Program-made: the position numbers and the translations under genes
Part shown: positions 8,347-38,604 of the stretch, in pieces
Position numbering within the stretch: the first letter of the stretch is position 1
Layout: every line of letters starts with the position of its first letter
The notes under the pieces: generated by a model
The model's database searches: none
Told to the model about the DNA's origin: nothing
The model's input: only the letters and a program-made list of their open reading frames with translations
From: an uncultured Gemmatimonadales bacterium
GTDB lineage: Bacteria; Gemmatimonadota; Gemmatimonadetes; Gemmatimonadales; Gemmatimonadaceae
Direction: 5' to 3'
NCBI GenBank assembly: GCA_963731305.1
Contig: CAVSUQ010000011.1
Location: 11,670-75,669 of the forward strand
Length of the DNA: 64,000 nt

Positions 8347-8408
8347 TGCAGCTACCGAGCCGCTCGGACTGAATAGGAAGCGGCTCGCATTATCGTGGAG
8401 AATTAGTA

Positions 8409-9218: not shown

Positions 9219-9299
9219 CCACGCATCGCGCGATCTGAAGCTAGAGGACTAACTCTCTGTCGAGGTTCAGATCGGGCGTGTGCAAGTCGCGCCCGGAAA

Positions 9300-9962
9300 A
9301 TGCAGCTGTGGCCCGATCAATGCTCCCCAGCCTATTACCGTCAACGGAGAAATCAATGCGTCGCTCTTACAAGTCTTGTCACAATCTTCGCCCTAACAGC
9401 CGCTGCCGCTTCTATGGCCGGTGCGCAGGCCGCGACTTCGCTCACCAAACCCATATCCATCGGAATCTCGGGCGGAGTCGCAATCCCCAGCGGCGGCCTG
9501 GCAAATGGGACCAGCGGTGGCTTCACGGGTGTCAACACCGGATACAACGTCACCGGCTCACTTGCGCTCGCGCTTCCGGTCCTGCCGTTCGAGGTCCGCG
9601 GAGACGTCGCGTACAACGGATTCGGCTCCAAGAATTTCATCTTTCCAGCGGACGAAGGACAGAGCTCCTACAACGCCGATGTTCGCGTTCTCGGCTTTAC
9701 CGCCAATATCGTGTACCCATTTCCGATTCCGACGCCACTCATCCGTCCGTATGTCATAGGCGGAATTGGTGAGTACAATGTCAGGATCTCTCCGTCCACC
9801 GGTGCAAGCACGTCCCAGAGCGACTTCGGTTACAATCTCGGCGCAGGTGTGAAACTATCGCTTGTGGGTTTCAACCTGTTCGCCGAAGCGCGCTATCACC
9901 ACGTGAACGAGAATCAGGGTAGCACTGCGTTCACACCGATAACTGTGGGCGTGATGTTCTGA
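9300..9962 (+). CDS. Small outer-membrane beta-barrel protein (OMP_b-brl/OmpW-like porin family)
   Basis: Signal peptide ending AGAQA, alternating hydrophobic beta-strand pattern, and C-terminal ...FAEARYHHVNENQGSTAFTPITVGVMF ending in F. The exact start is uncertain. Confidence 0.65.
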   Translation: MQLWPDQCSPAYYRQRRNQCVALTSLVTIFALTAAAASMAGAQAATSLTKPISIGISGGVAIPSGGLANGTSGGFTGVNTGYNVTGSLALALPVLPFEVRGDVAYNGFGSKNFIFPADEGQSSYNADVRVLGFTANIVYPFPIPTPLIRPYVIGGIGEYNVRISPSTGASTSQSDFGYNLGAGVKLSLVGFNLFAEARYHHVNENQGSTAFTPITVGVMF

Positions 9963-10154
9963 CAAAATACGCGGCCGACCACCACTGGTAAATCGCTGGT
10001 AGTCCAACACGATCGTTCCGGGCGTTGCCATTGCTCATCGGCGCACGTTGAGATAGCGGCGCGGATAAATCCGCGCCCTACGCAGGGCGCTACCCTCCGG
10101 CGTTTCCTATTGACCGATGATTGGCGGGTCGGCGATCTAATTCACGCTGACCGA

Positions 10155-10748
10155 TCAACTCTGTTCGATCGCGCACAGTTCCTCGATCGTATCAATGTCC
10201 GACGCGGCGGTGTCCATGCGCACTCTGGCTACGCGATCGCCCTGACCGCGTAGCCAGAGTGCCGCTCCGCGATCACCCGAGACGGCACGGGCCAGCTCGC
10301 TGATGTGGCGCGTCGAGATGAGCGCCGGTACCCCAGCCATTCCGTTGTACTCCGCTGCTGCGATCCCGTCGCCGCAAGCGAACGCGTCGATCAAAGCAGT
10401 GAGATCTCGCGCATCTATGAGCGGTTGATCCACCGTAAGAAGCAGCACCGCATCGATAGAATCAATCTGAACCGCCGCAAGCCCCGCGCGAATGGATGAT
10501 GCAAGGCCGGTGGCCCATTCACGATTGACAACAACGGCGACGTCATCAGACTCACCGAGTATCGACGCAACGACGTCCGCGTGCGCGCCCAGCACGACAA
10601 TCACATGCGTGGCACCAGCTTCCCGTGCACGCCGTACGGTTCTCATCAACATCGGCTCGCCGCGGAAATCGGCAAGCTGCTTGGGTGAACCAAATCGCGA
10701 TGCAGCACCGGCGGCGAGTATGACCGCCGCGATACGCGGCCTGTTCAT
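10155..10748 (-). CDS. mocA: Molybdenum cofactor cytidylyltransferase (MocA-type NTP transferase)
   Basis: Start MNRPRIAAVILAAGAASRFGSPKQLADFRGEPML (ATG at 10748). The ORF-track start at 10958 is an upstream extension overlapping the xdhC-like gene. This is the last gene of the molybdoenzyme operon. Confidence 0.75.
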   Translation of the reverse strand: MNRPRIAAVILAAGAASRFGSPKQLADFRGEPMLMRTVRRAREAGATHVIVVLGAHADVVASILGESDDVAVVVNREWATGLASSIRAGLAAVQIDSIDAVLLLTVDQPLIDARDLTALIDAFACGDGIAAAEYNGMAGVPALISTRHISELARAVSGDRGAALWLRGQGDRVARVRMDTAASDIDTIEELCAIEQS

Positions 10749-20430: not shown

Positions 20431-20545
20431 GCGACTTTCCAGTTTCTCCCGACTGAATGGATGAGTGATCGCAGGTAGGTTGCGGAAGGTCCTCCACAAC
20501 CCGGGAAAGAATATCGTGAGTAGATCGCCCATCAATTTCGAAACC

Positions 20546-21625
20546 ATGGAAGACGCCGTGAATTCCGTGGTGTCGCGGCGCGAGTCGCGACGTTCGTTCC
20601 TTCGCAACAGCGCAGTCGCTGCGGTAGCCGGAACACTGGTGAGCGCGTGCAAGCCTGCTGCCGCATCCGAGCGATCGGTGAAAGCGGTCACGAAGGCAGC
20701 GCCGGTGGTAGCGACTCCCGTCGCGTTCGGTGCCGAAGACGTCAGTGCTGCGTCAATCGCCGCTGCCGACGCGATGGATAAAATGCACGAGGCCGGGATC
20801 AAGGCATTTCCCGCCAGCACCAGGGGCCGAGGCAATCAACTTCTCGCACCACGTATCGAGCACGGCGTCAAGGTATTCGACCTCACCGCGAAGAGGATGC
20901 AGTGGGAAACGGAGCCGGGCAAGGTTACGGAGGCGTGGGCATACAACGGGATGGTGCCCGGTCCGATGATTCGCGTCCGCGATGGCGAGCGTGTGAGGGT
21001 CAACATAAAGAACGAGCTGCCGGAATCCACGTCGATCCACTTTCACGGCGTGGAGCTCCCGAATGACCAGGATGGAGTGCCGTTCATAACGCAGCCTCCG
21101 ATCAAGCCAGGCCAGAGCTACACCTACGAGTTCGCTCCGCCGAATCACGGCTCGCACATGTATCACTCGCACCACGACTCCACCAAGCAGGTGGGCCTCG
21201 GCCTGCTCGGCGCATTCATCGTCGAGCCCAGGGACAGCTCGGAAGAGCCGCACGCAGACGTCGATCACGTCCTGATTCTGAACGACGGGCTGAACGGCTT
21301 CACCATCAACGGAAAGGGATTTCCGGCGACCGACCCGATCGTCGCGAGGCTCGGGCAGACGGTGCGGATCCGTTTCATGAATGAAGGGATGATGATCCAC
21401 CCGATGCACCTGCATGGCATGCACATGACCGTCATCGCCAAGGACGGATGGGCGCAGCCGCAGCCATGGAGGTGCGACACCCTCAACGTGGCGCCGGGCG
21501 AGCGCTGGGATGTGCTGGTGAAATGCAATAATCCCGGCACCTGGGCATTCCACTGCCATATTCTGCCGCACGCGGAGTCGGAGCAGGGCATGTTCGGCAT
21601 GGTGACCGCGCTGATAGTGAAATAG
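20546..21625 (+). CDS. Tat-exported multicopper oxidase (three-cupredoxin CopA/CueO-like, compact)
   Basis: Tat signal SRRESRRSFLRNSAVAAVAG. Copper motifs HFHGVELPN, HMYHSHHD, HPMHLHGMHM and WAFHCHILPHAESEQGM. The start at 20546 (MEDAV...) is preferred over 20465. Confidence 0.85.
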   Translation: MEDAVNSVVSRRESRRSFLRNSAVAAVAGTLVSACKPAAASERSVKAVTKAAPVVATPVAFGAEDVSAASIAAADAMDKMHEAGIKAFPASTRGRGNQLLAPRIEHGVKVFDLTAKRMQWETEPGKVTEAWAYNGMVPGPMIRVRDGERVRVNIKNELPESTSIHFHGVELPNDQDGVPFITQPPIKPGQSYTYEFAPPNHGSHMYHSHHDSTKQVGLGLLGAFIVEPRDSSEEPHADVDHVLILNDGLNGFTINGKGFPATDPIVARLGQTVRIRFMNEGMMIHPMHLHGMHMTVIAKDGWAQPQPWRCDTLNVAPGERWDVLVKCNNPGTWAFHCHILPHAESEQGMFGMVTALIVK

Positions 21626-21672
21626 GTAATAGTCCGGTAGTCGTCCTCGTTGGTGATGGTAGCTTTATAGCC

Positions 21673-23169
21673 ATGACCAACGAGAGCCACGACAGTGCAG
21701 ACGGTGATACTAGGACCACACCGCCCGAGTGGCTGTCGCGGCCGCCGTCGGCCGGCATGTACGAAAAGATTCTGGAGGCCGCGGCAGATGCGATCGTCAC
21801 GATCAACGAGGCACAGGAAATAGTGCACTTCAATCGCGGTGCAGAGCAGATCTTTGGATATCGCAAGGACGAGGTGCTGGGCCGCAACCTGGACAAGCTG
21901 CTGCCGGCGCAGTTCCGCGCGAACCATGCTGCATACGTCGTTGCATTTGGCGAGTCCGCCGACTCCGCGAGATTGATGGGTCACAGGCGTGAAGTATTCG
22001 GACTCAGGAAGAATGGAACGGAGTTTCCGGCGGAGGCTTCCATCCTCAAGCTGGACGCACCGGATGGACGCCGGCTTTATACCGCACTCGTGCGCGATGT
22101 GACCGACCGGAAGCGGATGGAGGGACATCAGCGATTTCTGGCGGAGGTCGGCATCGCACTAAGTGACTCGCTCGATTACGATGCGACGATCGCGTCCGTG
22201 GCGCGGCTGCCGGTGCCGACGCTTGCCGATGCGTGCATCATCGAGGTGATCGACGAGGTGGGCGAGATTCATCGGGCGACATATGGTAGCGCGGAACTGC
22301 TGAACGGAGCTGTATCTGCCGATGTGGCAACGCAGGAGCTGACACTCACGGCCCGCGGACAACCAGTGGGCGTGTTGACGTTGCTACGAGCCGATTCGTC
22401 GCGCGGCAATGATCAGGGTGATTCGATCATCGCAGCCAATTTTGCAACGCGTGCGGCGCTCGCGGTGGACAACGCACGATTGTATCACGAGGCCCAACGC
22501 GCAACCGCCGCGAGAGACGAGATACTGGGAGTCGTATCGCACGACCTCAGGAATCCGTTGAGCGCGATCGCGATGTGTTCACGTGTACTGGTCGATACAC
22601 CGCCGGCCGACGCGGCCGCGCGGCGCGAGCTGGCAAGGACGATCCACGAATCGACGACGTGGATGTCACGCATGATTCAGGATCTGCTCGACGTCTCGGC
22701 GATCGACGCAGGTGTACTCTCCATTGTCCGTGACAGTGCGGATATCGGCCAGATCGTGATGCGATCTGCTGGCCTTTTCACACGGACGGCGGCGGAACGC
22801 GGTGTGGCCATTGTTGTGACGGTGGACGAATCGCTGCCGCGAGCGTCTGTAGATGCAGAGCGAATAGTGCAGGCGATCGCGAATCTCATCGGCAACGCGG
22901 TGAAGTTCACTCCGGCCGGCGGAAGTGTCACGGTCAAGGCTCGCTCACACGGGGAAGTGATAGAGATTGCCGTTGAGGATACGGGACGGGGGATCCCCGA
23001 CGCGGACGTCCCATTCATTTTCGATCGATTCTGGCATACACGCGGTGCAGCCGCCGGGACAGGGTTGGGGCTGGCGATTGTGAAGGGGATCGTCGAGGCT
23101 CACGGGGGCACGGTTGCAGTCGGCAGCAGGGTTGGAGAGGGCAGCCGCTTCACTATCAGCTTGCCGTGA
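21673..23169 (+). CDS. PAS-domain sensor histidine kinase (cytoplasmic, orphan)
   Basis: PAS region (IVTINEAQEIVHFNRGAEQIFGYRKDEVLGRNL), H-box VSHDLRNPLSAI, and N/G boxes IGNAVKFTP, EDTGRGIP, GTGLGLAIVKGIVEAHGG. Confidence 0.85.
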   Translation: MTNESHDSADGDTRTTPPEWLSRPPSAGMYEKILEAAADAIVTINEAQEIVHFNRGAEQIFGYRKDEVLGRNLDKLLPAQFRANHAAYVVAFGESADSARLMGHRREVFGLRKNGTEFPAEASILKLDAPDGRRLYTALVRDVTDRKRMEGHQRFLAEVGIALSDSLDYDATIASVARLPVPTLADACIIEVIDEVGEIHRATYGSAELLNGAVSADVATQELTLTARGQPVGVLTLLRADSSRGNDQGDSIIAANFATRAALAVDNARLYHEAQRATAARDEILGVVSHDLRNPLSAIAMCSRVLVDTPPADAAARRELARTIHESTTWMSRMIQDLLDVSAIDAGVLSIVRDSADIGQIVMRSAGLFTRTAAERGVAIVVTVDESLPRASVDAERIVQAIANLIGNAVKFTPAGGSVTVKARSHGEVIEIAVEDTGRGIPDADVPFIFDRFWHTRGAAAGTGLGLAIVKGIVEAHGGTVAVGSRVGEGSRFTISLP

Positions 23170-23329: not shown

Positions 23330-23732
23330 ATGGAACAGCTTCTTGCCCGTAACAACGTCGGGCGAATCGCATTCTCGCTACACGATCGAGTGGACATAGA
23401 GCCGATCAACTACGTGTTCGATTCCGGCTGGATATATGGCCGCACGAGTCACGGCACAAAACTGTCAACGATCGCGCACCAATCCCTGGGTCGCGTTCGA
23501 GGTGGACGAGGTCAGGGGGATATTCCAGTGGTCGAGCGTCGTGGTCAAGGGCGCGTTTTATCTCATAGATGCAGACACGTCGATCCGGCAGGACCCCGCG
23601 TTCAATCGTGGCGTCGAGCTACTTCGGGCGCTCATACCTCAAACTATGGCGGCCAGTGATCCAACTCCGTTCCGCAATTCGGTGTTTCGCATTCATCTTG
23701 ACGAGGTCACCGGGCGAGCGGCGAACGGATAG
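23330..23732 (+). pseudogene. Pyridoxamine 5'-phosphate oxidase-family (flavin-binding split-barrel) protein, one frame change near 23470
   Basis: MEQLLARNNVGRIAFSLHDRVDIEPINYVFDSGWIYGRTSHGTKLSTIAH lies in ORF 23330-23659. The sequence continues as NPWVAFEVDEVRGIFQWSSVVVKGAFYLID in ORF 23436-23732. Confidence 0.65.
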
Positions 23733-23809: not shown

Positions 23810-24283
23810 ACATCAGGCGTCGAAGGTGGTCGTCCGCGGCGACACAGCGTGATCCATCGCATGGTTGCTGGCGACCCTCTTCGGTCCGGAAACGACTCCT
23901 GGGCCGGCTTGTCTGGGTCCTGCTACGAAAAAAATGCATCGATACCGCATGCCAGCTCAAGACTGCTATTTCGGAATCCGGCAGTGGAGTTGCCGCGGGA
24001 CAGCATCTTGTTCGCATTCTGCCGGATACGGTAGTCGCCGCCGTCGTCGTCGGACCGGCGGTCGCGTGCGGATTCCAAATCGTCGGCGAGCACTTCGACA
24101 GTGTCTATTTCGGCGCATCGCCAGAGAATGGAATTCATGGACTGCAGGCCTTCAACGTGCCTGCAGGGCGGCGGTATGATCTTGGAGTTCGTGGCTGACA
24201 TCGCTGGTGAATACGTCTTCGTCAACCACAGTTTCGGTCACGGACAGAAGGGCGCCATGGGAACGCTGGTGGTGAATCCGTAG
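23810..24283 (+). pseudogene. Remnant of a second copper nitrite reductase (nirK-like) gene: domain II only, 5'-truncated and frameshifted
   Basis: Pieces ...EKNASIP..., GVAAGQHLVRI...GPAVACGFQIVGEHFDSVYFGASPENGIHGLQAFNVPAG and GGGMILEFVADIAGEYVFVNHSFGHGQKGAMGTLVVNP lie in three frames. They align with the intact NirK tail AKNASYVVFNG...FHIVGAMFDRVYPDGNPEHALEGVQTYPVPAGGGVVFEAV...GLYPFVTHSFADAEKGAVGMIQV. Confidence 0.6.
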
Positions 24284-24316
24284 CAACAAATCGTGATCGC
24301 CGGCGCCACCTGGGAT

Positions 24317-24808
24317 CTAGAACCGCTCGCCCTTTGCCTCACGCGCCTGGCTCCCCACCGGCCGAATTCTCATCCACATCGTGAAGAAGAAGACACCGAT
24401 CGCGATCGCCTGAAGAAAACCGGCGCCGACTATCGAGATACGGAGCCATAGTGCCGAGATGTTCATGTCGAACAGGGTCGATCGCATTATTTCACCGCCG
24501 ACCCGCGCAGCGGTCCCGATCGTTATCACCCAGTACGCGGTCGCGACGAGTCGTGGGCTATATTGTGCGTCGGACTTTTCGGGGCGGGGGAAGAGCCACA
24601 GTGCAACGCCCATGATCATCATCATCACGAAGCCGACGAACAGCGCGTGCGTATGAGCACTCACGAGATATTCGTCCGGTGCTGCCCCCCACAATTCCCG
24701 ACGCGCTATCAGGTATCCACCTATAGCCAGGCCAACGGTGATAAAGGCGAGCGCGGTCTTGAGATAACGACGGACGAGCGTGTACACGGTCGCGCTACTC
24801 AGCCGCAC
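24317..24808 (-). CDS. Small 4-TM membrane protein carrying an NnrS-like His motif
   Basis: 163 aa. SAHTHALFVGFVMMMIMGVALWLFP fits H-x4-G-[WF]-x6-G-x4-L-[LF]-P, also seen twice in the larger membrane protein at 26107-27514. Last gene of the mrp operon. Confidence 0.55.
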   Translation of the reverse strand: MRLSSATVYTLVRRYLKTALAFITVGLAIGGYLIARRELWGAAPDEYLVSAHTHALFVGFVMMMIMGVALWLFPRPEKSDAQYSPRLVATAYWVITIGTAARVGGEIMRSTLFDMNISALWLRISIVGAGFLQAIAIGVFFFTMWMRIRPVGSQAREAKGERF

Positions 24809-24844
24809 TCACGCAGCTGCACTCACGCAGCTGCACTCGTGCGG
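24805..24844. repeat. 14-nt tandem repeat (gcactcacgcagct x2 plus a degenerate third copy)
   Basis: Copies at 24805-24818 and 24819-24832, with a partial copy at 24833-24844. It spans the GTG start of the small membrane gene. Confidence 0.7.
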
Positions 24845-24913
24845 CCACCAAGCTAAAGCCAGCCACCATAAAAGCCGGTGGAGTAAGTCAGCAGGAGCAC
24901 GTCGTGCCTGTGA

Positions 24914-25171
24914 TCACTTCCGGTCAATCTGCACGCGCCATACTTCCGGCCCCTGTGCCTGGTATGTCCACTCGAATGTCCCAGGGTGTTCGGCGTCGAG
25001 CTGATATCGCAATGGGCGCGGATCGTGATCGTTGATGAGAATCATCGACTGACCCTTCTCGAGACCATCGAACGTACGAAAGATGGTGGGATGCTTGTCC
25101 CTCGGCGGAATGATGCGAACGTCCAGCTCGACCGGAACGTTGCCGGACTGTGCTGCGGTTGACTGCGACAT
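24914..25171 (-). CDS. DUF2249 domain-containing protein
   Basis: 85 aa. ELDVRIIPPRDKHPTIFRTFDGLEKGQSMILINDHDPRPLRYQL is the characteristic DUF2249 signature as I recall it. Confidence 0.75.
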   Translation of the reverse strand: MSQSTAAQSGNVPVELDVRIIPPRDKHPTIFRTFDGLEKGQSMILINDHDPRPLRYQLDAEHPGTFEWTYQAQGPEVWRVQIDRK

Positions 25172-25237
25172 CTATTGCTCCTGTGATTGAATGCACTGAT
25201 GATTCAAGGTGACGCGTGGAATGCGAGGTGCCGATGA

Positions 25238-26110
25238 CTATTCCACGCGCCAGATTCTGACCTGTACTTCGTCCGGCTGCGGTTCATCTATCGTGAAGTG
25301 AAAACCTCGCTCTCTGAGAATCGGTAGAAGGAATTGCGGAACACGCATGTTGAGCTGGACCAGCATGCTCTTCGCTGGCAGATTCTCCAACGCTTCCAGC
25401 GTGCGTACCAGCGGCTCAGGCGGCTCCATGTCTCTCACGTCCAGCCACACCTCGGTGCGCGCCGGCGGATCCCCGGTGCCCGATTCGGCTGGATTCGGAG
25501 TTGTTGCGGCAGACGTCGGAGGTACGGTCGCAGGTGCCGTCGCTGCAATTGAGGATTCAGTTGCCATCTCGGGATGAAAGAACCACACCGACCAGTCGTC
25601 ATCAGCATGTCGTTCGCACCTGTGCGCGAACCCGCGCTTCTGCATGACGGCAAAGAGCGGAACCGGCTCGAATGGTGCGCGCAGATGCAGTACCTCGCGC
25701 TCACGGAGCGTCCCGACTGCTGCCATGATCCGGGAGAAGGGCTCGCCGCCCTTGCTCAGCTCCTCCCGTACATCCAGATCTACGACGGATACGGATGATG
25801 GTACGGACCATTGCACTGCCGCTGACTTCTCAATCGCATCGGTCACGTCGGCGTTCGCCGCATCGCTGGACAAGGAGTGGATACCGATCGCGTGATTGAG
25901 CTCGCGCACGAGCGAATCAGCAGACATATTGCAGAGTCGCGCCGCCTGTGCCACGGTCGTTACGCGCGCCATTATCCGCCGCATCGGTGAATGGCGAAGC
26001 TTTGCCAGCTGCGGCGAGTGGCCTGCTACCACGTCGATCAGTCGCTCGTCGCGCTCGAACAGGCGCTGCAGCTTGTCAGACGCCTGCACGGGCGTTGCAT
26101 TCGTATTCAT
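25238..26110 (-). CDS. DUF1858 (RIC/ScdA N-terminal-like) domain fused to two DUF2249/TusA-like domains
   Basis: Start MNTNATPVQ (ATG at 26110). The N-terminal part is VAGHSPQLAKLRHSPMRRIMARVTTVAQAARLCNMSADSLVRELN. Two repeats follow, of the type LDVRE..GGEPFSRIM...LHLRAPFEPVPL and LDVRDMEPPEPLVRTLEAL. The 758-aa ORF in the track is a chimera of this gene and an out-of-frame read-through. Confidence 0.65.
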   Translation of the reverse strand: MNTNATPVQASDKLQRLFERDERLIDVVAGHSPQLAKLRHSPMRRIMARVTTVAQAARLCNMSADSLVRELNHAIGIHSLSSDAANADVTDAIEKSAAVQWSVPSSVSVVDLDVREELSKGGEPFSRIMAAVGTLREREVLHLRAPFEPVPLFAVMQKRGFAHRCERHADDDWSVWFFHPEMATESSIAATAPATVPPTSAATTPNPAESGTGDPPARTEVWLDVRDMEPPEPLVRTLEALENLPAKSMLVQLNMRVPQFLLPILRERGFHFTIDEPQPDEVQVRIWRVE

Positions 26111-27514
26111 CGGAATGTCTTCGCGGTTGTGGGTTGACCAATCCTCGTGTCGATATCCCTGAACGACGTGCCGAATGTCACTCGAGCAATCTGGCTCGCG
26201 AACAACCCGGCACCGGCGACGAACAGACATGCTGCAAGACGCACTACCAGGACAGTGCCTGTTATAACGCCTATTTCCAGCCACAGGATTGCGGCGGCGA
26301 AAAGCGCGAGGTCCATATGCGCGACGAGCGGAGAGTACAGCTGCGCCACGGTTGGAACCCGTTTCTTCCCCATGTTCCCCCGGAAGCGCGCCATCCACGT
26401 GAGGAACGGCACGATCTTGTAGAACTGTCCGATCACGTAAAGTGTCAGGCCGCCGAGCAGTCCCAGCATTACGTAAGCCGTATCGAGCCGGCGGTAAGTC
26501 GACCCCGCGTACAGAACGACTGGCGCGAGCGCGGCACTCGCTGCGAGGAAGACCAGCGCAGTCGCGGCGTGCCGCAGTCCGGCATCGAGTCTCGGACGTT
26601 TGCGCGCTCTGAAAAAGCACCACGCCTGGGTGAGAAAGCAGAATATGCCGGATTCGATCAACAGCAATCCGGCCCATGCGACGAAGTCTGGTCTGAGACT
26701 GTGACCAGCCAGGATCCCGAGCGCCAGAATTACCACGCCAGGCGCGAGCAGCGCGAGCGCGCGAAGCGTCCATCTGGTGTCGGCGCTGTGTGCCAGGAGA
26801 AACATCGGCAGGAGGCGATGTGAGATGCCGGCGATCATCACCAGAACCCAGCCGATCAGTGCGACATGCAGGTGTGTCGCAAGAATGGTGACACGCCAGT
26901 CGCCGAGGAATCCGGTGTGCAGATTCCGAGCGAGCAGAGCGCCCATCGCAAATGTCACGGTGAGAAACGAGAGTGCGATCACGAATGCTCCCCATATCAC
27001 GTTGCGATCGACCACTCTGCGCAGCGACAGCGCTACGTTTACGATGAGGCACGTGACACCAACAGCTATCAGGGCGATTCCGGAGTTGCGAAGCATGCCC
27101 GAGCTGAACGCCACTCCGGATGCAAACAGCGCAACACCGGGTGCAAAGGTCCAGAAAGCTGACGTGTCCGGCGCGCTCCGATCTGATCGACACACCGAGC
27201 GCAACGGGCAGCAGTTGATACATCGCTCCGAAGATCGTCATGCTGAGCCAGCCGAGCGTGAAGCAATGTGTAACGCCGGCGACGTGTGGCGATAGATATA
27301 GACCCGCAGCGAGCTCCGGCGCGATCCAGACGAGTCCGATTGATCCCGTACACAGAAAGAAGAGCGCCGCTGCGAAGTGCTCACCGGGAAGGCGTAATGA
27401 CGGAGTTCCTTCCATCGCCAGCCCTGCCATTCCCGGTCCACGCGCCGGCGCCGGCCGCGTGGACCATGCCGGCGCACGCACTGCAATGCTCGGCAACGCC
27501 GGTGCAGCGCTCAC
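26107..27514 (-). pseudogene. Polytopic NnrS-like haem/copper-type membrane protein, one frame change near 27160
   Basis: The N-terminus (LRLPGEHFAAALFFLCTGSIGLVWIAPE...HCFTLGWLSMTIFGAMYQLLPVALG) is in the frame of ORF 25238-27514. The remainder (AFWTFAPGVALF...ATHLHVALIGWVLVMIAGISHRLLPMF...) is in ORF 26107-27204. The H-x4-G-W-x6-G-x4-LLP motif occurs twice. The start is either GTG 27514 (GTGA overlap with the mrp stop) or ATG 27430. Confidence 0.5.
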
Positions 27515-28622
27515 GTAGTGACCGCTTCGCCGTCCGCGAGCTGCCAGCCCAGCGCGTTGACGATCCTGTGCGCAATCGCGTCGAAGCTTCTGGCGAACTC
27601 GCTGTCGCTGCGGGTGATGATGGCAGGATTACCTGCGTCTCCTTCACGCACCACCTCCGCGTCGAACGGTACTGTGCCGAGCAGCGGAACGCCAAGCGCC
27701 ATCGCGACAATGGCGCCGCCACCGCTGCCAAAGGCGCCCGACATGTTCTCCACGACACCGAGCACCGGCACATCGAGCTGCGCGAACATGTCGCCTGCTT
27801 TCTGCGCCTCGACAGCTGCGAGTCGCTGCGGCTGCGTCACCACGATGGCGCCGGATACCTCGACAGCCTGTACGAGGCTGAGCGGGATGTCTCCCGTACC
27901 TGGCGGAAGATCGACAACGAGTACATCGAGCTGCGGCCATTCCACGCCGCGTGCGAACTGCTTCACGGCCTTCGACACCATCGGACCACGCCAGATCGCT
28001 GGAGATCCCTCGCCCAGGAAGAAGCCGAAGCTGATGAGCGTGAGGCCAAGCACCTCGACCGGAACGATGTGCTTGTCCGCTGTCATGCGAACGTGCTTCG
28101 AACCGTCCTCGATGCCGAGCAGGATCGGAACGCTCGGCCCGTATATATCGGCGTCGAGAAGCCCAACGACGAAGCCAGCGCGAACGAGTGCGAGAGCAAC
28201 GCTGACCGCGACCGTGCTCTTTCCGACGCCGCCCTTTCCGGCGCCGACAGCGATGATGTCGCGGACGTTGCCCAGTCTTACGCGGTCCGCCCACGGGTCC
28301 GGCACTCCGGCCCGCGCCGGTCCGGCGTTCGGGGAGTGCGGTATTGGCTGGGCGGCGGGTCGGGCTTGACGATCTCGACCGTGACCAGTGTCGCGCCTGA
28401 AGCAGCGAGGCGATCACGCACGGCAACGCGGAGTCGCTCGGGAATGGACTCATCCGCGGTGCGGAGGGCCAGCTGCACCTTGACCTGCGTTCCGCATACC
28501 GATATGTGCTTCACCATGCCGAACGACACGAGATCGCGCGTCAGTCCGGGATAGTGAACGTCTCGCAGCGCGCTGCGTACCATATCAACGTCGAGCTCTA
28601 AATCTGGCTCAGCTGTTGCCAT
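27511..28622 (-). pseudogene. apbC: Mrp/NBP35/ApbC-family Fe-S cluster carrier ATPase with N-terminal DUF59 domain, one frame change near 28340
   Basis: The DUF59 part (LRDVHYPGLTRDLVSFGMVKHISV) is in ORF 28278-28622. The ATPase part (IIAVGAGKGGVGKSTVAVSVALALVRAGFVVGLLDADIYGPS) is in ORF 27511-28305. The linker is readable across the two frames. Confidence 0.75.
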
Positions 28623-28683
28623 GAAAGAACGCTAGCTCGACCGCACATCGCGAGGTGTGACGGATGTCTCAGGGAGAGGAGTG

Positions 28684-29919
28684 ATGCCCGATCATGTGGA
28701 TACCGCTGGAGTCCGTGCCAGGATTCTGCACGAGACACTCGCGACGCAGTTTCCGGCGACACTGTTCCGGTTCGACGAGCGTATGGCGGATGGATATCAC
28801 TCTGACCGCTATTTCGTTCTGACGGCGAAAACAATATCGCATGCCGCGCTCGATCCAGTCGTCACCGTGCAGCTGTTTGCAAAACGGCAGGGCATTCTGG
28901 CAGGCGTTTACGAAGCGCTCGGGATGTTGCAGACTGAGCTCGCGACCAATCCGCATACTGGATCGCGGTATGACTTCCACGAGCTTACGATCGATACTCT
29001 CGTGGACGGCGATGTCGTGCTTCCCTGGGAGCCGCTCATGCATATCACAGGTCCCTATCTCGCGTTCGCGCATCTCGAAACGGACTACCTTGGCGTCATC
29101 GCTCGGCGCACCATGATCGCAACCAATGTGCGACGCGTTATTGACGCCGCCAATGGGAAGCCGGTCATCTTCATGGGAGCTCGGCACGATGACTGGCGCG
29201 TTCAGACCGCGGATGGCTATGCCGCAAAGATCGGCGGAATCGCCAGCGTGTCTACGGATGCGAACGGAGCCTGGTGGGGCGGCGGCGGTGTGGGCACGAT
29301 GCCCCACTCGATGATCGCCTCGTTTGGCGGCGACGTCGTGCGCGCCACCCGGCAATTTGCGCGATACTGCCGCGACGTGGCGCTTGATGTGGATATTGTG
29401 AGCCTCACGGATTACAACAACGATGTGATCGGCGACTCGCTGGCCGTCGCGCGTGCAATGCGCGATGAATTCGGCGACGGCGCGCTATGGGGAGTGCGGA
29501 TCGACACGAGTGAGAAGCTTGTCGATAAATCACTCGAAGCGGAGGCGATGCGCTTTCCCGAGCGTCGTCTCAACGGAGTGTGCCCTGAACTTGTCCTGCT
29601 GCTGCGTCGGGCGCTCGACGCCGAAGGGTTCAGCTATGTGAGAATCGGCGTGTCCGGCGGTTTCCATGTGAGGAAGATCGAGCGCTTCGAGGCCGAGCAT
29701 ATTCCGGTGGACTTTTACGGAGTGGGAAGCTCGCTGCTGGGCCACAATAACGGCGCGATCGATGGCCTCACAAACAACTTCGACGTCACGGCCGACATCG
29801 TTCGGGTGAATGGAAGCGCCGAGAGCAAAGCGGGGAGGGAGGAGCGCGGCAACCAGCGCTTCATACGACTGGATCACCAGCTGCTCGATCGGCTCGAAGC
29901 CGGGGCCACCGCCAGATGA
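28684..29919 (+). CDS. Nicotinate phosphoribosyltransferase (archaeal/type-II PRTase family)
   Basis: Intact ORF; the family call rests on recall of overall similarity (e.g. DRYFVLTAKT..., GARHDDW, GIASVSTDANG, MPHSMIASFGG) rather than one diagnostic motif. ATG 28684 is preceded by ggagagga, and an alternative GTG lies at 28657. Confidence 0.7.
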   Translation: MPDHVDTAGVRARILHETLATQFPATLFRFDERMADGYHSDRYFVLTAKTISHAALDPVVTVQLFAKRQGILAGVYEALGMLQTELATNPHTGSRYDFHELTIDTLVDGDVVLPWEPLMHITGPYLAFAHLETDYLGVIARRTMIATNVRRVIDAANGKPVIFMGARHDDWRVQTADGYAAKIGGIASVSTDANGAWWGGGGVGTMPHSMIASFGGDVVRATRQFARYCRDVALDVDIVSLTDYNNDVIGDSLAVARAMRDEFGDGALWGVRIDTSEKLVDKSLEAEAMRFPERRLNGVCPELVLLLRRALDAEGFSYVRIGVSGGFHVRKIERFEAEHIPVDFYGVGSSLLGHNNGAIDGLTNNFDVTADIVRVNGSAESKAGREERGNQRFIRLDHQLLDRLEAGATAR

Positions 29920-29989
29920 AGCTCGATTCAGCTTGCACGCGGAGAGACAACCGCAGATTGCCCGCGATGACATCGATCCAGGTGGGATA

Positions 29990-30594
29990 GTGGCAGTCTG
30001 CCTGTGGCTCACCGCGCACGGTACGAGCTGCCTTGAAGCCGTGGCGGTGGTGTTCGGAATAGTCAGCGTCTACCTCAGCACGCGCGAGAACATCTGGAGC
30101 TGGCCGACGGCTCTCATCAACGTTTCGCTCTTCACAGCACTCTTCCTCGAATCGGGTCTTTATTCGGATACGGGGTTGCAGGTCGTTTACTTCGTGCTTT
30201 CGGTGTACGGCTGGTACGAGTGGCTCTATGGAGGGGCAGGTCACACTTCGATAACCGTCTCCTCCACCACACGAAAAACGTGGATCGTGCTCGGCTGCAT
30301 CGGCGTCATCGCGTGGCTGATCCTCGCGACTGTCAGCTCGCACCTGCCGGGAACGAAGCTCCCCTATCTCGAGCCGCAACGACGACTATAAGCCTGCTCG
30401 CCCAGTGGATGATGACCCGCAAGCTGCTCGAGAACTGGATCGTGTGGATCGCGGTGGATGTCGTTTACGTCGGGATGTTCATCTAAAAAGGTCTGTATCT
30501 CACAGCGTTCAACTACGGCATCTACCTTGCTCTCGCGGTGCTCGGGTATATCGCATGGAAAAAGTCGCTCGCAGCGGCAACCTCATTCGCGTAG
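29990..30594 (+). pseudogene. pnuC: Nicotinamide riboside transporter PnuC, two frame changes (about 30370 and 30485)
   Basis: EAVAVVFGIVSVYLSTRENIWSWPTALINVSLFTALFLESGLYSDTGLQVVYFVLSVYGWYEW (ORF 29810-30391). Then TTTISLLAQWMMTRKLLENWIVWIAVDVVYVGMFI (ORF 30220-30486). Then KGLYLTAFNYGIYLALAVLGYIAWKKS, read by hand in the third frame. The start is uncertain (GTG 29990 or ATG 29967 with an extra shift). Confidence 0.7.
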
Positions 30595-31083
30595 TTCTCA
30601 CCGGCTCCGAATCGACCGGCAAGAGCGTGCTCGCGCGGCGGCTCGCCGAGCACTTCAGGGCCGAGCTTGCTCCGGAATTCGTGCGCGACTTCGCGATGCG
30701 CAAGGGAGCGCCGATCGAGTTCGAGGATACGGACGAGATCGCGCGCGGACAGATAGAGCTCGAAGATGAACACGCAGGACGTGCGGAGCTTGCTGATCCA
30801 GGACACCGATCTACTCAGCACAGTCGTGTACAGCGGCCACTATTACGGCCGCTGCCCCGAATGGATCGAGCGTGGCCCGCGCGCGCGACGGCCGGATCTC
30901 TATCTGCTGCTCGAGATCGACGTGCCCTGGGTTCCGGACGACGTGCGTGATCGTGAGAATCGGCGTGACGAGATGCAGCAGCTGTTCAGGACGGCGGTCG
31001 CGGAATCCGGAGCGCGGTACATCGTGATACGCGGATCGTGGAATGAACGCTTTGAGCGCGCGCGCCAGGCGATCGACAGCTGA
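30555..31083 (+). pseudogene. NadR-type ribosylnicotinamide kinase-like P-loop ATPase (AAA_28), one frame change near 30770
   Basis: IRVVLTGSESTGKSVLARRLAEHFRAELAPEFVRDF lies in ORF 30405-30950. It continues as LLIQDTDLLSTVVYSGHYYGRCPEWIE...DLYLLLEIDVPWVPDDVRD in ORF 30766-31083. Confidence 0.65.
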
Positions 31084-31148
31084 TCCAGGCCTGACGCGAC
31101 CGAGCACTGAGTTGCCCGACGCTCGCTCACACAGTCATTGTTAATCCC

Positions 31149-33251
31149 TCAGATCCCCAATTTCAGCGTCACAAATACGTTCGCCGGCGGAAGCACGAAG
31201 TAGTACGACGTTCCGTCGCTGGCATAGCCGCTGCCGTACTTCTTGCTGTTGGTGAGATTGTTGCCGCGAATCAGCAGCTCGTTCTGCCGAGAATCGCCAG
31301 CCGATCGAAGCGTCCATGTCGAAGGCATCCGGAAGCACGTAGCGGCGATCGTCGTTTCCCGAGAAACGAGACGCTCTGATACCGCCCTTCCACGGCGAGA
31401 TCGATCATCTCGTGGCCGCGAACTGCGCGCGCGCGAAGCTCAGGAAGCGCGGCGTGAGTAGCGGCTCGACGTTGTGATACGTGACGGGGACGGCCCGCTC
31501 GAATCGGTATATTCGCGAATCCGTTGACGCTCTCGGTCGCGTTGCCCGTGAGCAGCCATCGACGGATGCCACGATAGGTGACGTCGGCCTCGATCCCGCG
31601 CCGGTAGCTCGACGCGACGTTCCTGTTAGCTCGTAGCCGAGCTCGTCGAGCGCGCCGATAGGGGCGATCTCGTTGCGAAAGTCCATCGAGTACACGTTCG
31701 CCTGAACGTCGAGCAGCCTGCTCCTGTAGTTGGTGCCGATCTCGACGTCGTGCACGGTCTCCGGCTTGACCCGATTCGAGATCCGACGAACGCGACGTTC
31801 GACGTGTCGAGATTGTCGTAGCCCGCGAACATGTCGTTGCGCGTTGGCTCGCGCGACGTCTTGCCGTACGACGCGTACAGGGAGAGCGGCTGGTGAGCTG
31901 ATACGTCGCGCCGACCTTCGGATTGAGGAAGGACCACGAGATCGAGCTGCCGGAAATATCGGCGTGCACGTCGGGGAATGTAGCTGAACTCGGCGTGGCG
32001 ACCCTGCAGGTCGCCGAACAGAGTTGCGCGACCGATGACATATCCGACCTTGGCGAACGCAGCCTCGTCGCGCTTGCGCGATGTATTGAAGTAGATCGGA
32101 TCGTGCAGATCCGGGTGCATGAACGCATAGTGATCGCGTGCATACGTGATCACCGTTCGCGCCCACTGTGAGATTGAAGGCCGTTGCGATGATAGGTCCA
32201 TGCGCTCGTGAGCCCGTATGAGACGAAGTCGAGGTGGAACGTTTCGAGCGAGTCGAGCAGAACGTCGTCGCCGCCGGTCGCTGAGAGACGGTAGACAGTA
32301 GTTGCGAAACGACGAGTTGTTGTTGATGAGTCTGGTGTATGACAGCGCTCCCAATCGCTCGCCGAAGTCGTCGCGCTCCTGCGGAGTCAGGGGATTGATC
32401 CGGCGGTTGGTATCGAGTCTCCGCCACCGGAACCGCCAGGTACGCCATCGTGTCGGCCATGGCGCCCGACGTCGCGGTGAATTTCAGGATGTTGCGGTCG
32501 CCGAAGTAGCCGCCGCTCACGAATATCGATTTCCCCTCGACACCGGAGTGGTAGCGATAGCCGTCGGTGTGCAGCGCCGAGACTCGGGCGTAGAACGCCA
32601 GGTATCGTCCAGAACTCCGGTGTTGTAGTCAACGTTCGCGCGGCGCGATCCAAAGGAGCCGTCCTGGTACTTCGAGCTTCCACCGCGCGGCGCCGCGGCG
32701 AGCGACATAGTCTCGAGGTTGATGGAGCCGGCGTACGCGGCAGTACCGCTGCTGGTCGTACCCACACCGCGCTGCACCTGTACCGACTGCAGACTGTTGG
32801 CGAGGTCCGGAAAATCGGCGAAGTACAGGACCTGATCTTCGGGGTCGTTGAGCGGTATTCCGTCGAGCGTGATGTTGATGCGCGACTGGTCGAGCCCTCT
32901 CAACCTTATATAGCTGTAGCCCCAGTAATTGCCGGTCTCGGCGTACGACGTGAGCGACGGTGTGCTCCCTGGAAGCACGAGCGGTATGTCCTGCCCGAAA
33001 TATGTTCCTCGGATCTGCGTGTTGCGAGAGCGTCTTCTGCGATATCGGCGCTCGACGGGATCGCGGACCGCCGAAATCATGACGCCCCTCGAGCTTGCGC
33101 GCAGTCGAATCGGTGCGCGAGGTCGTGTCGGTTGTTGTATTGTCTGGCCGTCGATCGAGCTGGTGGGGATCGCTGCGGGAGTGCCACGCAGAAGGACGCC
33201 GCAAGTGCGAGCTCGACACGCACCGCGTGCAGGTGGTGCAGCTTCGTTCAT
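31149..33251 (-). pseudogene. TonB-dependent receptor (thiamine-related by riboswitch context), at least 5 frame changes
   Basis: The plug/barrel start YSYIRLRGLDQSRINITLDGIPLNDPEDQVLYFADFPDLANSLQSVQVQRGVGTTSSGTAAYAGSINLET is in ORF 32517-33251. Barrel pieces are spread over ORFs 31271-32143, 31405-32520 and 31626-32354. The C-terminus ...YYFVLPPANVFVTLKLGI-stop was read by hand (stop at 31149-31151). Confidence 0.8.
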
Positions 33252-33385: not shown

Positions 33386-35269
<1,884 letters not shown>

Positions 35270-35372
35270 GCGTCCGTCCCATTTGCGAAATGGGCAGAGC
35301 TCGAAGCGGCGGTCCACACGCTGTTTCGACAGTGCCTGTGAGACAGTTTAGAGTGCCGGGCGATCGGCCGAA

Positions 35373-35388
35373 GTGACTCATGTCACGT
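35373..35388. promoter_or_regulatory. CRP/FNR-type box candidate AGTGA-N6-TCACG upstream of ctaD
   Basis: agtgactcatgtcacg lies about 105-120 nt upstream of the ctaD start (35269). It is next to or overlapping the 3' end of the Crp/Fnr gene. Confidence 0.25.
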
Positions 35389-35399
35389 TTCGCAAGTGA

Positions 35400-36209
35400 T
35401 TATCTTCCCTGTGCGCGCGATCGAAGCTTTGCGACATCTGGGATCCGCATGCGCCCATGCTGAAATAGATTCCAGCAACTCGCTGCGCTTGAGCTGTCGC
35501 ATCGCGCGCGAAACTGACTCTCTGGCGCTCCCGATCTCGAGCGACAACTCCTCCTGTGTACGATCCAACCTGAGCTCGATCCCAAACGGAGTATTGATGC
35601 CGGATTGCTCGGCGTACCCGACAAGCAACATCGCGAGCCGCGCGGCGACATCGTGAAAGGCGAGCGTTTCAGTGACGTGCACAAGATGACGAAGACGCTT
35701 GCCGAGCACGCGAATTATCGCGTGCGCAACGTCGGGATGCGCACGATACACTACCTCGAAATCATCGCGCGCAAGAAAGATGAATCGCGAAGGCTCGACG
35801 GCACCGCGGACGCGGGATATACGCCACCGTCGAACAGCGGAAGCTCAGCGATCGGGCGTCCAGCACCCTCGATGTGAAGCACCTGCTCCTTGCCATCAGG
35901 ACTCGTGCGATAGATGCGAACACTTCCAGGGATTGGATCACATAGAGTCCGCGACATGTATCGCCAAGCAGAAAACAGCACGCTTCCGGTGCCGAAATCA
36001 CGTGCAACACAGCGGCATGCGAGTGGATGAATGACACCATCGTCCAGCTCGGAGAAGATCGCTATCTGTCGAAGCAATTCGCCGACCTCTGCGGAGAGTT
36101 TATCAGCGAACTCCGCGGTATCATGGAGAACCGATTCTGAGGGGTGACTAAGAGGGGACGTCACCGCGGGAAACTGTCGAGAATGCTGTCCGAACGGTGT
36201 CACGTGCAT
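35400..36209 (-). pseudogene. Crp/Fnr-family transcriptional regulator, at least 4 frame changes
   Basis: cNMP-binding pieces: IAIFSELDDGVIHPLACRCVARDFGTGSVLF, LLGDTCRGLYVIQS, GSVRIYRTSPDGKEQVLHIEGAGRPIAELPLFDGGVYPASA. HTH piece: RLDRTQEELSLEIGSARESVSRAMRQLKRSELLE. Tail: GRMRIPDVAKLRSRA. These occur in ORFs 35751-36269, 35762-36040, 35383-35751 and 35400-35684. Confidence 0.75.
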
Positions 36210-36898: not shown

Positions 36899-37017
36899 CC
36901 TCCCGTCGCTCTGCTAGCAAGGCTTTGCTCGCTCGGAACCATGCCTCCAAACTGTGACAATCGTCACGTTCGCAGATGTGGCCGAGTACGATTTTTCAAT
37001 CTAGCGATGAAAATACA

Positions 37018-37322
37018 TGACACCAATTGAGCTGACATCTGGAATGCGCTTCGTACGGTGATCGATCCGGAAATTGGCCTCGATATAGTGACGTTGGGGC
37101 TAGTATATGATGTCGTTCGTTTGACGGCGATTCACGAGCTAATGGGCAAGATTGTGCGTGTCACACACACGCTAACGACGCCAGGATGTCCTATGGAGCG
37201 CGTGATAACATCTGGTATTCGAGCAGCAGTGGGCTCGTGTTCCGGGCGTTGCAGCGGTCGGAGACGAACCTGGTGTGGGATCCTATATGGCATTCGGGGA
37301 TGATTACACCAGGAGCATGGTG
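37018..37322 (+). pseudogene. DUF59 (SufT/PaaD-like Fe-S assembly) protein, two frame changes
   Basis: ATG 37018 (MTPIEL..), then [27 protein letters not shown]...[11 protein letters not shown] in ORF 37058-37303. The tail [21 protein letters not shown]-stop was read by hand in a third frame. Confidence 0.65.
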
Positions 37323-37584: not shown

Positions 37585-38604
37585 TTAGTGTGACATCGTT
37601 GGAAACTGCCTGGGTGTTCCGACCTGAATCATCCCCACCGCACCCTTCTCCGCATCGGCAAAGGAATGAGTGACGAATGGATAGAGGCCCTCGCCGCTCG
37701 CGTCCTTGTTGAAGACGGCCTCGAACACCACACCACCGCCTGCCGGTACCGGATAGGTCTGCACGCCTTCGAGTGCGTGCTCCGGGTTGCCGTCCGGGTA
37801 AACGCGGTCGAACATGGCGCCGACGATGTGAAAATCGCTGTCGAAATTCGGGCCTGCGTTGACGACGTAGAAGCGCACGCGATCCCCCACTGCAACCTTG
37901 AGCGGGTGCTCCTTGTACTGTCCGGCGCGCCCGTTGAAAACGACGTAGCTGGCGTTCTTGGCCTGCTCGGACGGCCAATCTGCCTGAACCATGGTGCTGT
38001 CGGAAGTCGGCTTGGTGTAGAACTCACTCTGCACGATTACAAATTCCTTGTCCGCCTTGGTGCCCCATCCGCCTCTCGGATCGACGATGATCGGAAGATA
38101 CATTCCCTGCATTATGTGCATGGTAACCGGCGGAGTGCCGCAGTGAACCATGAATGCGCCCGGCTCGCGGGCGATGAACTCGAAAGCTACGGAATCCTTT
38201 GGCATGATCATGCGATACGCCACATTCGCCGGAATCTGAGCTGCATGAAAGTCAATCGAATGCGGCATATCAGCCTCGTTCACCACGTTGATGCGAACGT
38301 GATCACCCTCTCGCACGTGTATCACTGGACCGGGAACGGTTCCGCCAAAGGTCCATCCCTGGTACTTGACTCCGTCTGCGATCTCGATCGTAGCATTCTT
38401 GATCGGGATGCGAAACTCCTTGACGCCAGCGTCTGACATCTCGGGGAGTGTTGCGTCGTAGGCCGGGCTTGTCGACGTAATGACCTTGCCGAAATCGATG
38501 CGTGATACTTTATGTGAGCGAATCGCGTTGTCGGTGAAGCCCAGTACCGCAGCCGTGAGTACACCGGTAATCGCGAGTCCCGTCAGAATTTGAGTGCGTT
38601 TCAT
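37585..38604 (-). CDS. nirK: Copper-containing nitrite reductase NirK (two-cupredoxin-domain), intact
   Basis: 339 aa with an N-terminal hydrophobic signal/anchor. Copper-ligand regions MPHSIDFHAAQ and FMVHCGTPPVTMHIMQGM, and domain II FHIVGAMFDRVY...VPAGGG...FVTHSF. Confidence 0.85.
   Translation of the reverse strand: MKRTQILTGLAITGVLTAAVLGFTDNAIRSHKVSRIDFGKVITSTSPAYDATLPEMSDAGVKEFRIPIKNATIEIADGVKYQGWTFGGTVPGPVIHVREGDHVRINVVNEADMPHSIDFHAAQIPANVAYRMIMPKDSVAFEFIAREPGAFMVHCGTPPVTMHIMQGMYLPIIVDPRGGWGTKADKEFVIVQSEFYTKPTSDSTMVQADWPSEQAKNASYVVFNGRAGQYKEHPLKVAVGDRVRFYVVNAGPNFDSDFHIVGAMFDRVYPDGNPEHALEGVQTYPVPAGGGVVFEAVFNKDASGEGLYPFVTHSFADAEKGAVGMIQVGTPRQFPTMSH

Follow-up and report, generated by a model that had tools for sequence, protein, structure and literature searches.

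What does a run of five genes, flanked by the remnant of one nirK gene on one side and by the nirK / Crp-Fnr region on the other, contribute to an uncultured Gemmatimonadales bacterium? The genes, here called g1 to g5, occupy positions 24317-28622 of a 64,000-nucleotide (nt) stretch of contig CAVSUQ010000011.1, which was analysed at its full length and is hereafter called the window. An open reading frame (ORF) and Pfam search found all five on the minus strand and in one direction (Table 1), as a preliminary description of this DNA had claimed, and the genomic context that it gave was likewise confirmed. The names of homologues assign the contig to Gemmatimonadota. We conclude that the cluster is a real, conserved denitrification accessory operon. 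We give an even chance to its being a Crp-controlled membrane sensor and maturation module for denitrification, and we read the region as the Gemmatimonadota version of a module that other lineages carry too, next to nar genes in Thermus and next to nirK and nor genes in rhizobia. Denitrification controls the emission of nitrous oxide (N2O) and nitric oxide (NO) from soil, where Gemmatimonadota are abundant; their metabolism of nitrogen oxides (N-oxides) has been little studied.

The stable unit is shorter than the five-gene operon originally proposed. A scan with a g2 profile, covering one genome per species, returned 252 relatives, and the neighbourhoods were counted in the best 80, all of them Gemmatimonadota. 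Here g1 lies directly upstream of g2 (70/76 loci), g3 directly downstream of g2 (67/69) and g4 after g3 (59/62), the order g1-g2-g3-g4 being kept in 92-97% of loci; a g5-type gene is adjacent downstream in 5/60. Orthologues of g5 additionally have a TATAGTTC element 6-9 nt before the ATG (L002 11250-11268; L016 2225-2241; L012 13085-13102), which suggests a promoter of their own and a leaderless mRNA, and locus L012 has a stand-alone g5 with its own upstream operator box, TGTGACGCATGTCACG. Since g5 is rarely adjacent and its orthologues carry their own upstream element, the stable unit consists of the four genes g1 to g4, with g5 as a facultative companion. The conserved neighbourhood is linked to N-oxide respiration. 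DsbA and NirK are conserved neighbours of the cluster. In 31 of 67 loci the gene next upstream of g1 belongs to the Crp/Fnr family, with a divergent DUF59 gene beyond it in 30 of those. The family of g2 homologues comprises 2,960 clusters at 50% identity, and is annotated merely as "hypothetical protein".

We additionally identified a conserved operator in front of the operon. When the 160-nt regions before g1 were compared across 76 loci, a 16-bp Crp-type box, TGAGACAWCCGTCACA, emerged, which 72 of the loci have with no more than two mismatches; its consensus, TGAGACA[T/A]CCGTCACA, forms an imperfect palindrome (TGAGAC-N4-GTCACA). The centre of the box in the window lies 41 nt before the ATG of g1, a spacing shared by 12 related loci, and a TAGCGT hexamer lies 6 nt before the same ATG. 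Because of this box spacing and the position of the hexamer, the sequence suggests a class-II Crp/Fnr-type promoter with a leaderless or near-leaderless transcript. In a scan of the 80 loci, 1.04 Mb in total, the box was found upstream of g1 in 65/72 and between the DUF59 and Crp genes in 37/42, and stray copies numbered 30, approximately the rate expected by chance. The canonical FNR box TTGAT-N4-ATCAA was considered and rejected in favour of the CRP-like box, having 14 matches against 14.6 expected, none of them upstream of g1. A scan for sigma-70 promoters returned nothing, and terminator-like matches were at chance level.

The soluble proteins g3 and g4 link the membrane proteins of the g2 and g5 types to the only members of such a module that have been studied experimentally, DrpA and DrpB of Thermus. 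The g4 protein is 62.5% identical to DrpA of Thermus thermophilus, and g3 is 33% identical to DrpB over its full length (blastp), with the same DUF1858 + DUF2249 + DUF2249 layout; in tblastn against Thermus plasmids, g3 gave 96% coverage at 30-32% identity (E 5e-24). DrpA and DrpB were studied in 2018 by Chahlafi et al. as regulators of nitrate respiration (PMC6282519). Anoxia together with nitrate induces drpAB via the Crp-family activator DnrT, the dnr and nar operons are deregulated when DrpA/DrpB are lost, and a drpAB double mutant makes the nitrate reductase protein with little activity (PMC6282519). DrpB is bound to the membrane without a transmembrane segment (PMC6282519), which a co-encoded membrane partner may explain.

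The domains of g3 and g4 also bear on the explanation offered in the preliminary description, that it is a membrane-linked module which, during nitrite reduction, senses NO damage to metal centres or repairs it. The operon would then be an analogue of RIC/YtfE and NnrS that acts on iron-sulphur (Fe-S) or other centres, with g1 and DUF59 re-supplying clusters. We consider this unlikely. The resemblance of g3 to RIC/ScdA repair proteins comes down to a weak, sub-threshold DUF1858 match (24.3 bits, cut-off 32.2 bits) beside two DUF2249 domains (E 3e-29), but RIC/ScdA/YtfE proteins are defined by ScdA_N and a hemerythrin-like di-iron domain, and a Pfam search of all five proteins matched neither ScdA_N nor hemerythrin. 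The kinship between DUF1858 and ScdA_N is at superfamily level only. The three DUF2249 domains reported earlier are indeed present, two in g3 and one in g4 (PF10006, E 5.8e-31, 106 bits), but the catalytic cysteine of the TusA CPxP motif is absent: at that position the second DUF2249 domain of g3 reads EPPEP and g4 reads KHP. The same domain of g3 scores 23.1 bits against TusA, below the cut-off of 28.6 bits. No cysteine is conserved in the DUF2249 domains of g3 or g4, which further argues against repair of NO damage. Conversely, the weakly active nitrate reductase of the Thermus drpAB double mutant points to a maturation or repair role (PMC6282519).

In g4 an invariant histidine, H27, takes the position of the TusA catalytic cysteine, and a D-H-D-P motif extends from D48 to P51 with H49 invariant. 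These residues (H27, D48-H49-D50) would suit a metallochaperone, or cofactor insertion system, in which the ATPase without CxxC acts like the Mrp/MinD-type HypB or CooC, and the His/Asp-bearing DUF2249 protein supplies NirK, the co-regulated COX1 protein or g2 itself with copper, iron or haem. DsbA and NirK as conserved neighbours, and the Crp box in front of the COX1 gene as well, point the same way, but the DUF2249 domains of g3 have lost the histidines that g4 keeps, and we think metal or haem delivery quite unlikely. A PDB sequence search with g4 returned nothing. The PDB matches of g3 were WD40 proteins without any individually significant stretch, and were set aside as spurious repeat sums.

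The neighbours of drpAB in Thermus resemble those of the DrpA- and DrpB-like genes described here. On plasmid pTHTHE1601, narGHJI is followed by a major facilitator superfamily (MFS) gene, drpA and drpB, and then by genes for a g5 homologue of 144 amino acids (aa), a protoglobin, a g2 homologue of 383 aa and DUF59; the genes directly downstream of drpB in T. thermophilus SG0.5JP17-16 correspond to positions 7795-10581 of our locus L086. The g5 homologue (E 2e-10) has four helices and abuts the drpB stop codon, the g2 homologue is 27% identical (E 3e-16), and the NAR1 plasmid carries a g2 homologue at the same distance as on pTHTHE1601. In the Thermus papers drpAB figures as a bicistronic unit, and its downstream neighbours, the homologues of haem-copper oxidases (HCO), protoglobin and DUF59, go undiscussed (PMC6282519). 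As in the window, the Thermus genes belong to an N-oxide respiration island under a Crp-family activator. In contrast, drpA precedes drpB in Thermus, whereas the DrpB-like gene precedes the DrpA-like gene here, and Thermus has a protoglobin, a shorter g2 homologue, no Mrp-like ATPase, and nar in place of nirK as a neighbour. The Thermus module thus lies beside a nitrate reductase with Mo, Fe-S and haem, with neither a copper enzyme nor an ATPase, which argues against a metallochaperone role.

Rhizobia have a third version of this arrangement. In Rhizobium sp. CIAT894 the order is hemN, DUF2249, g2 homologue, 2xDUF2249, DUF59, nnrS and nirK-nnrR-nnrU, and in S. meliloti the genes for DUF2249, the g2 homologue and the 2xDUF2249 protein lie between hemN/norD and nnrS/nirK. 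The likeness to the window consists of a 450-aa homologue of g2 (26-28% identical, E to 7e-12) amid DUF2249 proteins, a DUF59 gene after the cluster in Rhizobium and a nirK / Crp-Fnr (NnrR) setting; the differences are that the 2xDUF2249 protein lacks DUF1858, DUF59 stands alone and there is no ATPase. That this cluster adjoins nnrS, nirK and nor, and that the cluster has a DUF59 gene for company in each of three phyla, are points in favour of sensing or repair of NO damage. We found no published study of the genes of the rhizobial cluster of DUF2249 proteins and g2 homologue.

Haloarchaeal plasmids also carry g2 homologues, and in Halobaculum their neighbours are cupins, DUF2249 and katG. These are not denitrification genes, and therefore the link to denitrification is not universal. 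In Haloferax, all four DUF2249 genes are upregulated under denitrification (log2 fold change 3.2-8.7), and one DUF2249 is fused to a P-loop NTPase of the Fe-S carrier type (PMC11218638), indicating that proteins of the g1 and g4 types are functionally linked.

The genetics of DrpA/DrpB in Thermus, the HCO-homology families and the induction of DUF2249 genes in Haloferax were thus already known, as was the link between DUF2249 and HCO homologues, which is credited to Pei et al. 2014 (PMC11218638). The earlier statement that the gene set had not been characterised as a unit nevertheless stands to the extent that no paper describing the five-gene Gemmatimonadota unit was found in the searchable literature. 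Three elements, of which we found no published description, appear to be new: a Gemmatimonadota operon of four genes that includes a DUF59-Mrp fusion devoid of CxxC, the conserved operator of this operon, and the link of DrpA/DrpB to co-encoded membrane proteins of HCO fold across three bacterial phyla.

The structure of g2 was assessed on an AlphaFold2 model of its homologue P0121 (87% identical to g2), which has 12 transmembrane helices, a predicted local distance difference test (pLDDT) of 86.9 and a predicted TM-score (pTM) of 0.88. The model shows the 12-helix core fold, with three-fold pseudosymmetry, of HCO and nitric oxide reductases (NOR): its best Foldseek matches are cbb3 CcoN and NorB (TM-score 0.66-0.72, E 5e-8), and all of its top 30 are HCO/NOR subunit I proteins (TM-score 0.6-0.73, 9-15% identity). 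Histidines H18, H55, H186 and H188 are invariant in Gemmatimonadota, and an alignment including Thermus, Sinorhizobium, Rhizobium and Halobaculum leaves only H55 (helix 2) and H186 (helix 6) as universal; the helix-7 His-His and the helix-10 H-x-H are absent from it, so the six-ligand set of HCO/NOR enzymes is incomplete. On this model, g2 has an HCO fold without a binuclear centre, there being no CuB site. With two universal histidines and no CuB site, g2 therefore most likely binds a single bis-His haem and is neither an oxidase nor an NO reductase.

The g5 protein has four helices, an invariant SAHTHA motif and a conserved basic C-terminal tail, RIRPVGSQAREAKGERF. It scores 33.7 bits (E 2.4e-8) against the COX1 profile PF00115, just below the cut-off of 34.8 bits, and the N-terminal part of g2, in what is the sole Pfam signal of that protein, scores 19.6 bits, also below it. 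The g2 and g5 profiles were aligned with a single COX1 by hhalign, with weak scores (E 0.51 for g2; E 2.6e-4 and 42% probability for g5) that served only to place the histidine motifs. In these alignments the H-x-H of g5 falls on the helix-10 H-x-H of COX1, and unit 1 of g2 and g5 both align with the region around it (Pfam positions 313-385, 344-399). A fold search with the g5 model (pLDDT 72.8) returned nothing with E below 0.7, four-helix bundles being too generic, and the assignment of g5 as an HCO relative is a sequence-based prediction. Homologues of g5 are routinely mislabelled as "cbb3-type cytochrome c oxidase subunit I"; another database label is "response to NO" protein. Pei, Li, Kinch and Grishin reportedly described, in 2014 (Protein Sci 23:1220), relatives of HCO/NOR subunit I with 12 helices (three units) or four helices (a single unit), closest to HCO helices 9-12, which are said to have mostly two conserved histidines and possibly one haem, and to occur in denitrification or NO-detoxification contexts. 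With its 12 helices and two universal histidines g2 fits this description, as does g5 with its four helices.

A catalytic role, in which g2, alone or together with g5, would itself reduce NO or O2 or would transfer electrons as a subunit of a new type of respiratory complex, would be consistent with the HCO/NOR fold, the CcoN and NorB matches and the denitrification context, as well as with the extra H-x-H on helix 6 of Gemmatimonadota g2 (H186/H188) and the H-x-H of g5. We judge it highly improbable: the helix-7 and helix-10 ligands are missing, two histidines only are universal, the COX1 scores fall below the Pfam cut-off, and across the 80 neighbourhoods the unit includes no conserved partner of the cytochrome c or subunit II kind.

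NnrS is a distant relative within the HCO superfamily and protects against NO stress, a point in favour of NO-damage sensing or repair. The term "NnrS-like", previously applied to g2 and g5, holds only at the superfamily level: NnrS, like g2, is a 12-helix membrane protein of NO-responsive regulons with an H-x-H-type motif on a central helix. However, neither protein matched the NnrS profile PF05940 at E<=0.01, hhalign comparisons with S. meliloti NnrS were not significant (E 0.32 for g2, E 0.29 for g5), g2 folds like CcoN and NorB, and rhizobia carry NnrS and a g2 homologue side by side. Some g5 homologues have weak precomputed NnrS matches, and the g5-type protein of L004 gives E 1e-3 against NnrS, all of them sub-threshold. 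The unmatched NnrS profile also counts against sensing or repair of NO damage.

The first gene, g1, was previously described as an Fe-S cluster carrier ATPase with a DUF59 domain. Both domains are present (DUF59 PF01883, E 6.6e-10; ParA/NUBPL PF10609, E 3.9e-80, over the full profile), giving g1 the N-terminal DUF59-type domain, ParA/NUBPL domain and deviant Walker A motif of the Mrp/ApbC/NBP35 family. The Walker A motif, GKGGVGKS, is intact, and g1 is therefore probably a nucleotide-dependent dimer. The carrier function, in contrast, is not borne out. Alignment with E. coli Mrp (8zkc) extends throughout save for an 11-residue deletion that removes the cluster-bridging CxxC after ENMS, g1 having ENMSGAFGSGGG where E. 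coli Mrp reads ENMSvhiCsnCghhepiFGtGG, and CxxC is absent from 76/76 g1 orthologues, most of which have a single cysteine. Judged by these motifs, g1 is no canonical Fe-S carrier. Sensing or repair of NO damage retains a DUF59 and Mrp-family scaffold in its favour, and the CxxC missing from every orthologue speaks against it. Solved relatives of g1 include the Thermococcus Mrp/MinD-type protein 3vx3, which we take to be the nickel-insertion ATPase HypB, a relationship that favours the metallochaperone explanation.

Gene content, conservation, fold, the lost catalytic and Fe-S motifs, homology to DrpA/DrpB and the conserved operator are shown by the analysis, whereas we infer that g2 binds haem, which proteins touch each other, what is sensed and what results. 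In the scheme that we propose, the neighbouring Crp/Fnr-family regulator would activate the operon via the 16-bp box at about -41.5; a copy of the same box lies in the promoter region of the regulator itself. The haem of g2 would signal redox or N-oxide (NO, nitrite) conditions at the membrane, or g2 could be a redox-linked scaffold. The conserved arginine-rich cytoplasmic loops of g2 would dock the DrpB-like protein, with which the DrpA-like protein, bearing its His and Asp residues, and the ATPase would complete a complex. This complex may feed back on the regulator, on the maturation of respiratory-enzyme cofactors, or on both, as DrpA/DrpB do in Thermus.

Several points weigh against a Crp-controlled sensor and maturation module. 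No box was found at the nirK promoter of the window, and the link between box and Crp protein comes from adjacency and CRP-like half-sites only. Thermus is without the ATPase and has a different gene order, so the module is not identical in the two lineages. The genetic evidence for modulation of Dnr and nitrate reductase is from Thermus only. The Thermus authors place DrpA in the periplasm and suggest a role in nitrate sensing, which is a misfit with a purely cytoplasmic partner model (PMC6282519); g4 has no signal peptide. Finally, g1 and g2 are frame-broken in the window, and their function in this organism presupposes sequencing error.

In a wider and rather doubtful generalisation, DrpA/DrpB, cofactor-poor HCO-fold proteins and DUF59/Mrp would together form a widespread, phosphorylation-free signalling system, in which a haem protein senses NO, nitrite or redox state and controls Crp/Fnr regulators and enzyme maturation. 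Such a system would span bacteria and, at least partly, haloarchaea. If true, it would represent a new class of transducer, based on a membrane haem protein derived from respiratory oxidases, and would explain the membrane-bound DrpB. Our findings warn that the module should not be taken for an oxidase, for an NnrS protein or for an Fe-S carrier, and they yield concrete hypotheses that can be tested on an accessory system widespread in nitrite and nitrate respiration.

The broken frames of g1 and g2 raise the question whether the operon is decaying in this organism, with both as true pseudogenes and the cluster no longer working. DNA alignment with L001 places a 1-nt deletion in the CCGCCGCCC stretch of g1, within 28346-28361, and g2 has a 1-nt insertion, reading TTT at 27155-27157 where L001 and L002 read TT; intact orthologues have 370 aa (g1) and 439-468 aa (g2). 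The two frameshifts, mentioned in the preliminary description, are real in the sequence, and together with the NirK remnant next door they count in favour of decay. When 12 orthologous genes of L004 were compared with the window at 24.9-37.3 kb, however, at least one frame change was found in 9/12 genes between 24900 and 37320 (Crp, DsbA, DUF59, COX1, TonB receptor, PnuC, AAA_28, g1 and g2), approximately one per kb across unrelated genes, with high identity to the L004 orthologues throughout. As 9/12 neighbouring genes are broken, the frameshifts are probably indel noise in the assembly rather than selective decay of the operon, and their pervasiveness suggests an error-prone, probably long-read, assembly. 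The g2 indel lies in a T run and that of g1 in a C/G-rich stretch, the proteins are, indels aside, 82-90% identical to intact orthologues without internal stops, and the closest related assemblies are long-contig metagenome bins. We therefore accord decay only the slightest likelihood. Another NCBI assembly encodes P0153, a protein of 645 aa with DUF2249 that matches g2 at 99% identity across 67% of its length; it has the look of a read-through from g2 into g3, in a nearly identical organism that was assembled independently.

The junctions between the genes agree in part with those described earlier. The ATGA overlap at 26107-26110 is real, and the overlapping stop and start of g2 and g3 are kept in the relatives L001, L002 and L004. 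The GTGA at 27511-27514 is present in the sequence but is probably not the start of g2, leaving GTG at 27514 as an alternative start: many of the listed g2 homologues have 439 aa counted from a conserved ATG, equivalent to 27430 in the window, the spacer of about 84 nt between g1 and g2 is weakly conserved with indels that are not multiples of three, and the g1-g2 gap has a median of about 92 nt in 70 loci. The start of g5 is most likely the GTG at 24787, which gives 156 aa as in homologues. Of the later gaps, previously put at 60-105 nt, one then measures 66 nt, within that range, and the other 126 nt, outside it. A 14-nt tandem repeat at 24800-24838 lies directly upstream of the g5 start, and has no counterpart at the equivalent positions of g5 orthologues.

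Table 1. Features of the operon and its surroundings in the window.
Feature	Position	Strand	Remarks
g1	28622-27511	-	DUF59 fused to Mrp/NUBPL-type P-loop ATPase, without CxxC; frame broken
g2	26107-27430	-	12-helix HCO-superfamily homologue lacking the CuB ligands; corrected length about 440 aa; frame broken
g3	26110-25238	-	DrpB-like soluble protein, DUF1858 + 2x DUF2249; start overlaps g2 stop (ATGA)
g4	25171-24914	-	DrpA-like, single DUF2249 domain
g5	24317-24787	-	Predicted 4-helix single-unit HCO homologue, 156 aa; facultative neighbour
Predicted Crp/Fnr-type operator	28656-28671	-	TGAGACATCCGTCACA; upstream of g1
Second box copy	35372-35387		1 mismatch; between Crp and 629-aa COX1 genes
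Third box copy	36953-36968		0 mismatches; divergent DUF59 / DsbA-Crp promoter region
NirK C-terminal remnant	24073-24289, perhaps starting near 23850	+	About 48-50% identity to residues 258-328 of the intact NirK
Intact nirK	37585-38604	-	
Crp/Fnr-family regulator	35403-36107	-	Frame-broken; located by tblastn with intact orthologues
Stand-alone DUF59 gene	37007-37320	+	Frame-broken; divergent from DsbA-Crp; conserved companion of the cluster
Tandem repeat	24800-24838		14 nt (CAGCTGCACTCACG), 2.8 copies, 96% matches; Tandem Repeats Finder (TRF) score 71

Beyond g1, the window differs from other loci in what separates the operon from the Crp gene, whose orthologue in L004 has the Pfam domains cNMP_binding and HTH_Crp_2. 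A block for NAD salvage or uptake (NaPRTase, PnuC, NadR-like AAA_28 and a TonB-dependent receptor; 28684-33083) lies between the Crp region and g1 in the window, L002, L004 and L005, and elsewhere Crp abuts g1. In the lineage of the window, this block and a COX1 gene have been inserted between Crp and g1. The latter, a 629-aa A-type COX1 gene (33392-35269, minus strand), lies just downstream of Crp, with the second box copy in front of it. Its L004 orthologue has all canonical ligands (HPEVY, HHMF, HIHY), and no subunit II gene was seen beside COX1 in that locus; perhaps COX1 is an orphaned oxidase subunit under the same control as the operon.

On the other side, the NirK fragment is split over two frames and convergent with g5; it is a remnant, or else a paralogue whose frame is badly broken. 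In the closest relatives, L001 (11184-11477) and L004 (12617-12865), an ORF of 82-97 aa, unmatched in Pfam, separates g4 from a g5-type gene of 140 aa, after which come a cytochrome c-FTR1 fusion and an NMO gene; this layout is missing from the window, whose g5 is of a different subtype. Further out, 20465-23169 (plus strand) encodes a two-domain multicopper oxidase of 386 aa with a twin-arginine-like signal, followed by a PAS histidine kinase of 498 aa; this oxidase is a separate copper enzyme and no nirK remnant. Between these genes and the NirK fragment, two overlapping ORFs in different frames (23330-23732, plus strand) resemble, by eye, a pyridoxamine-5'-phosphate oxidase with an apparent frameshift.

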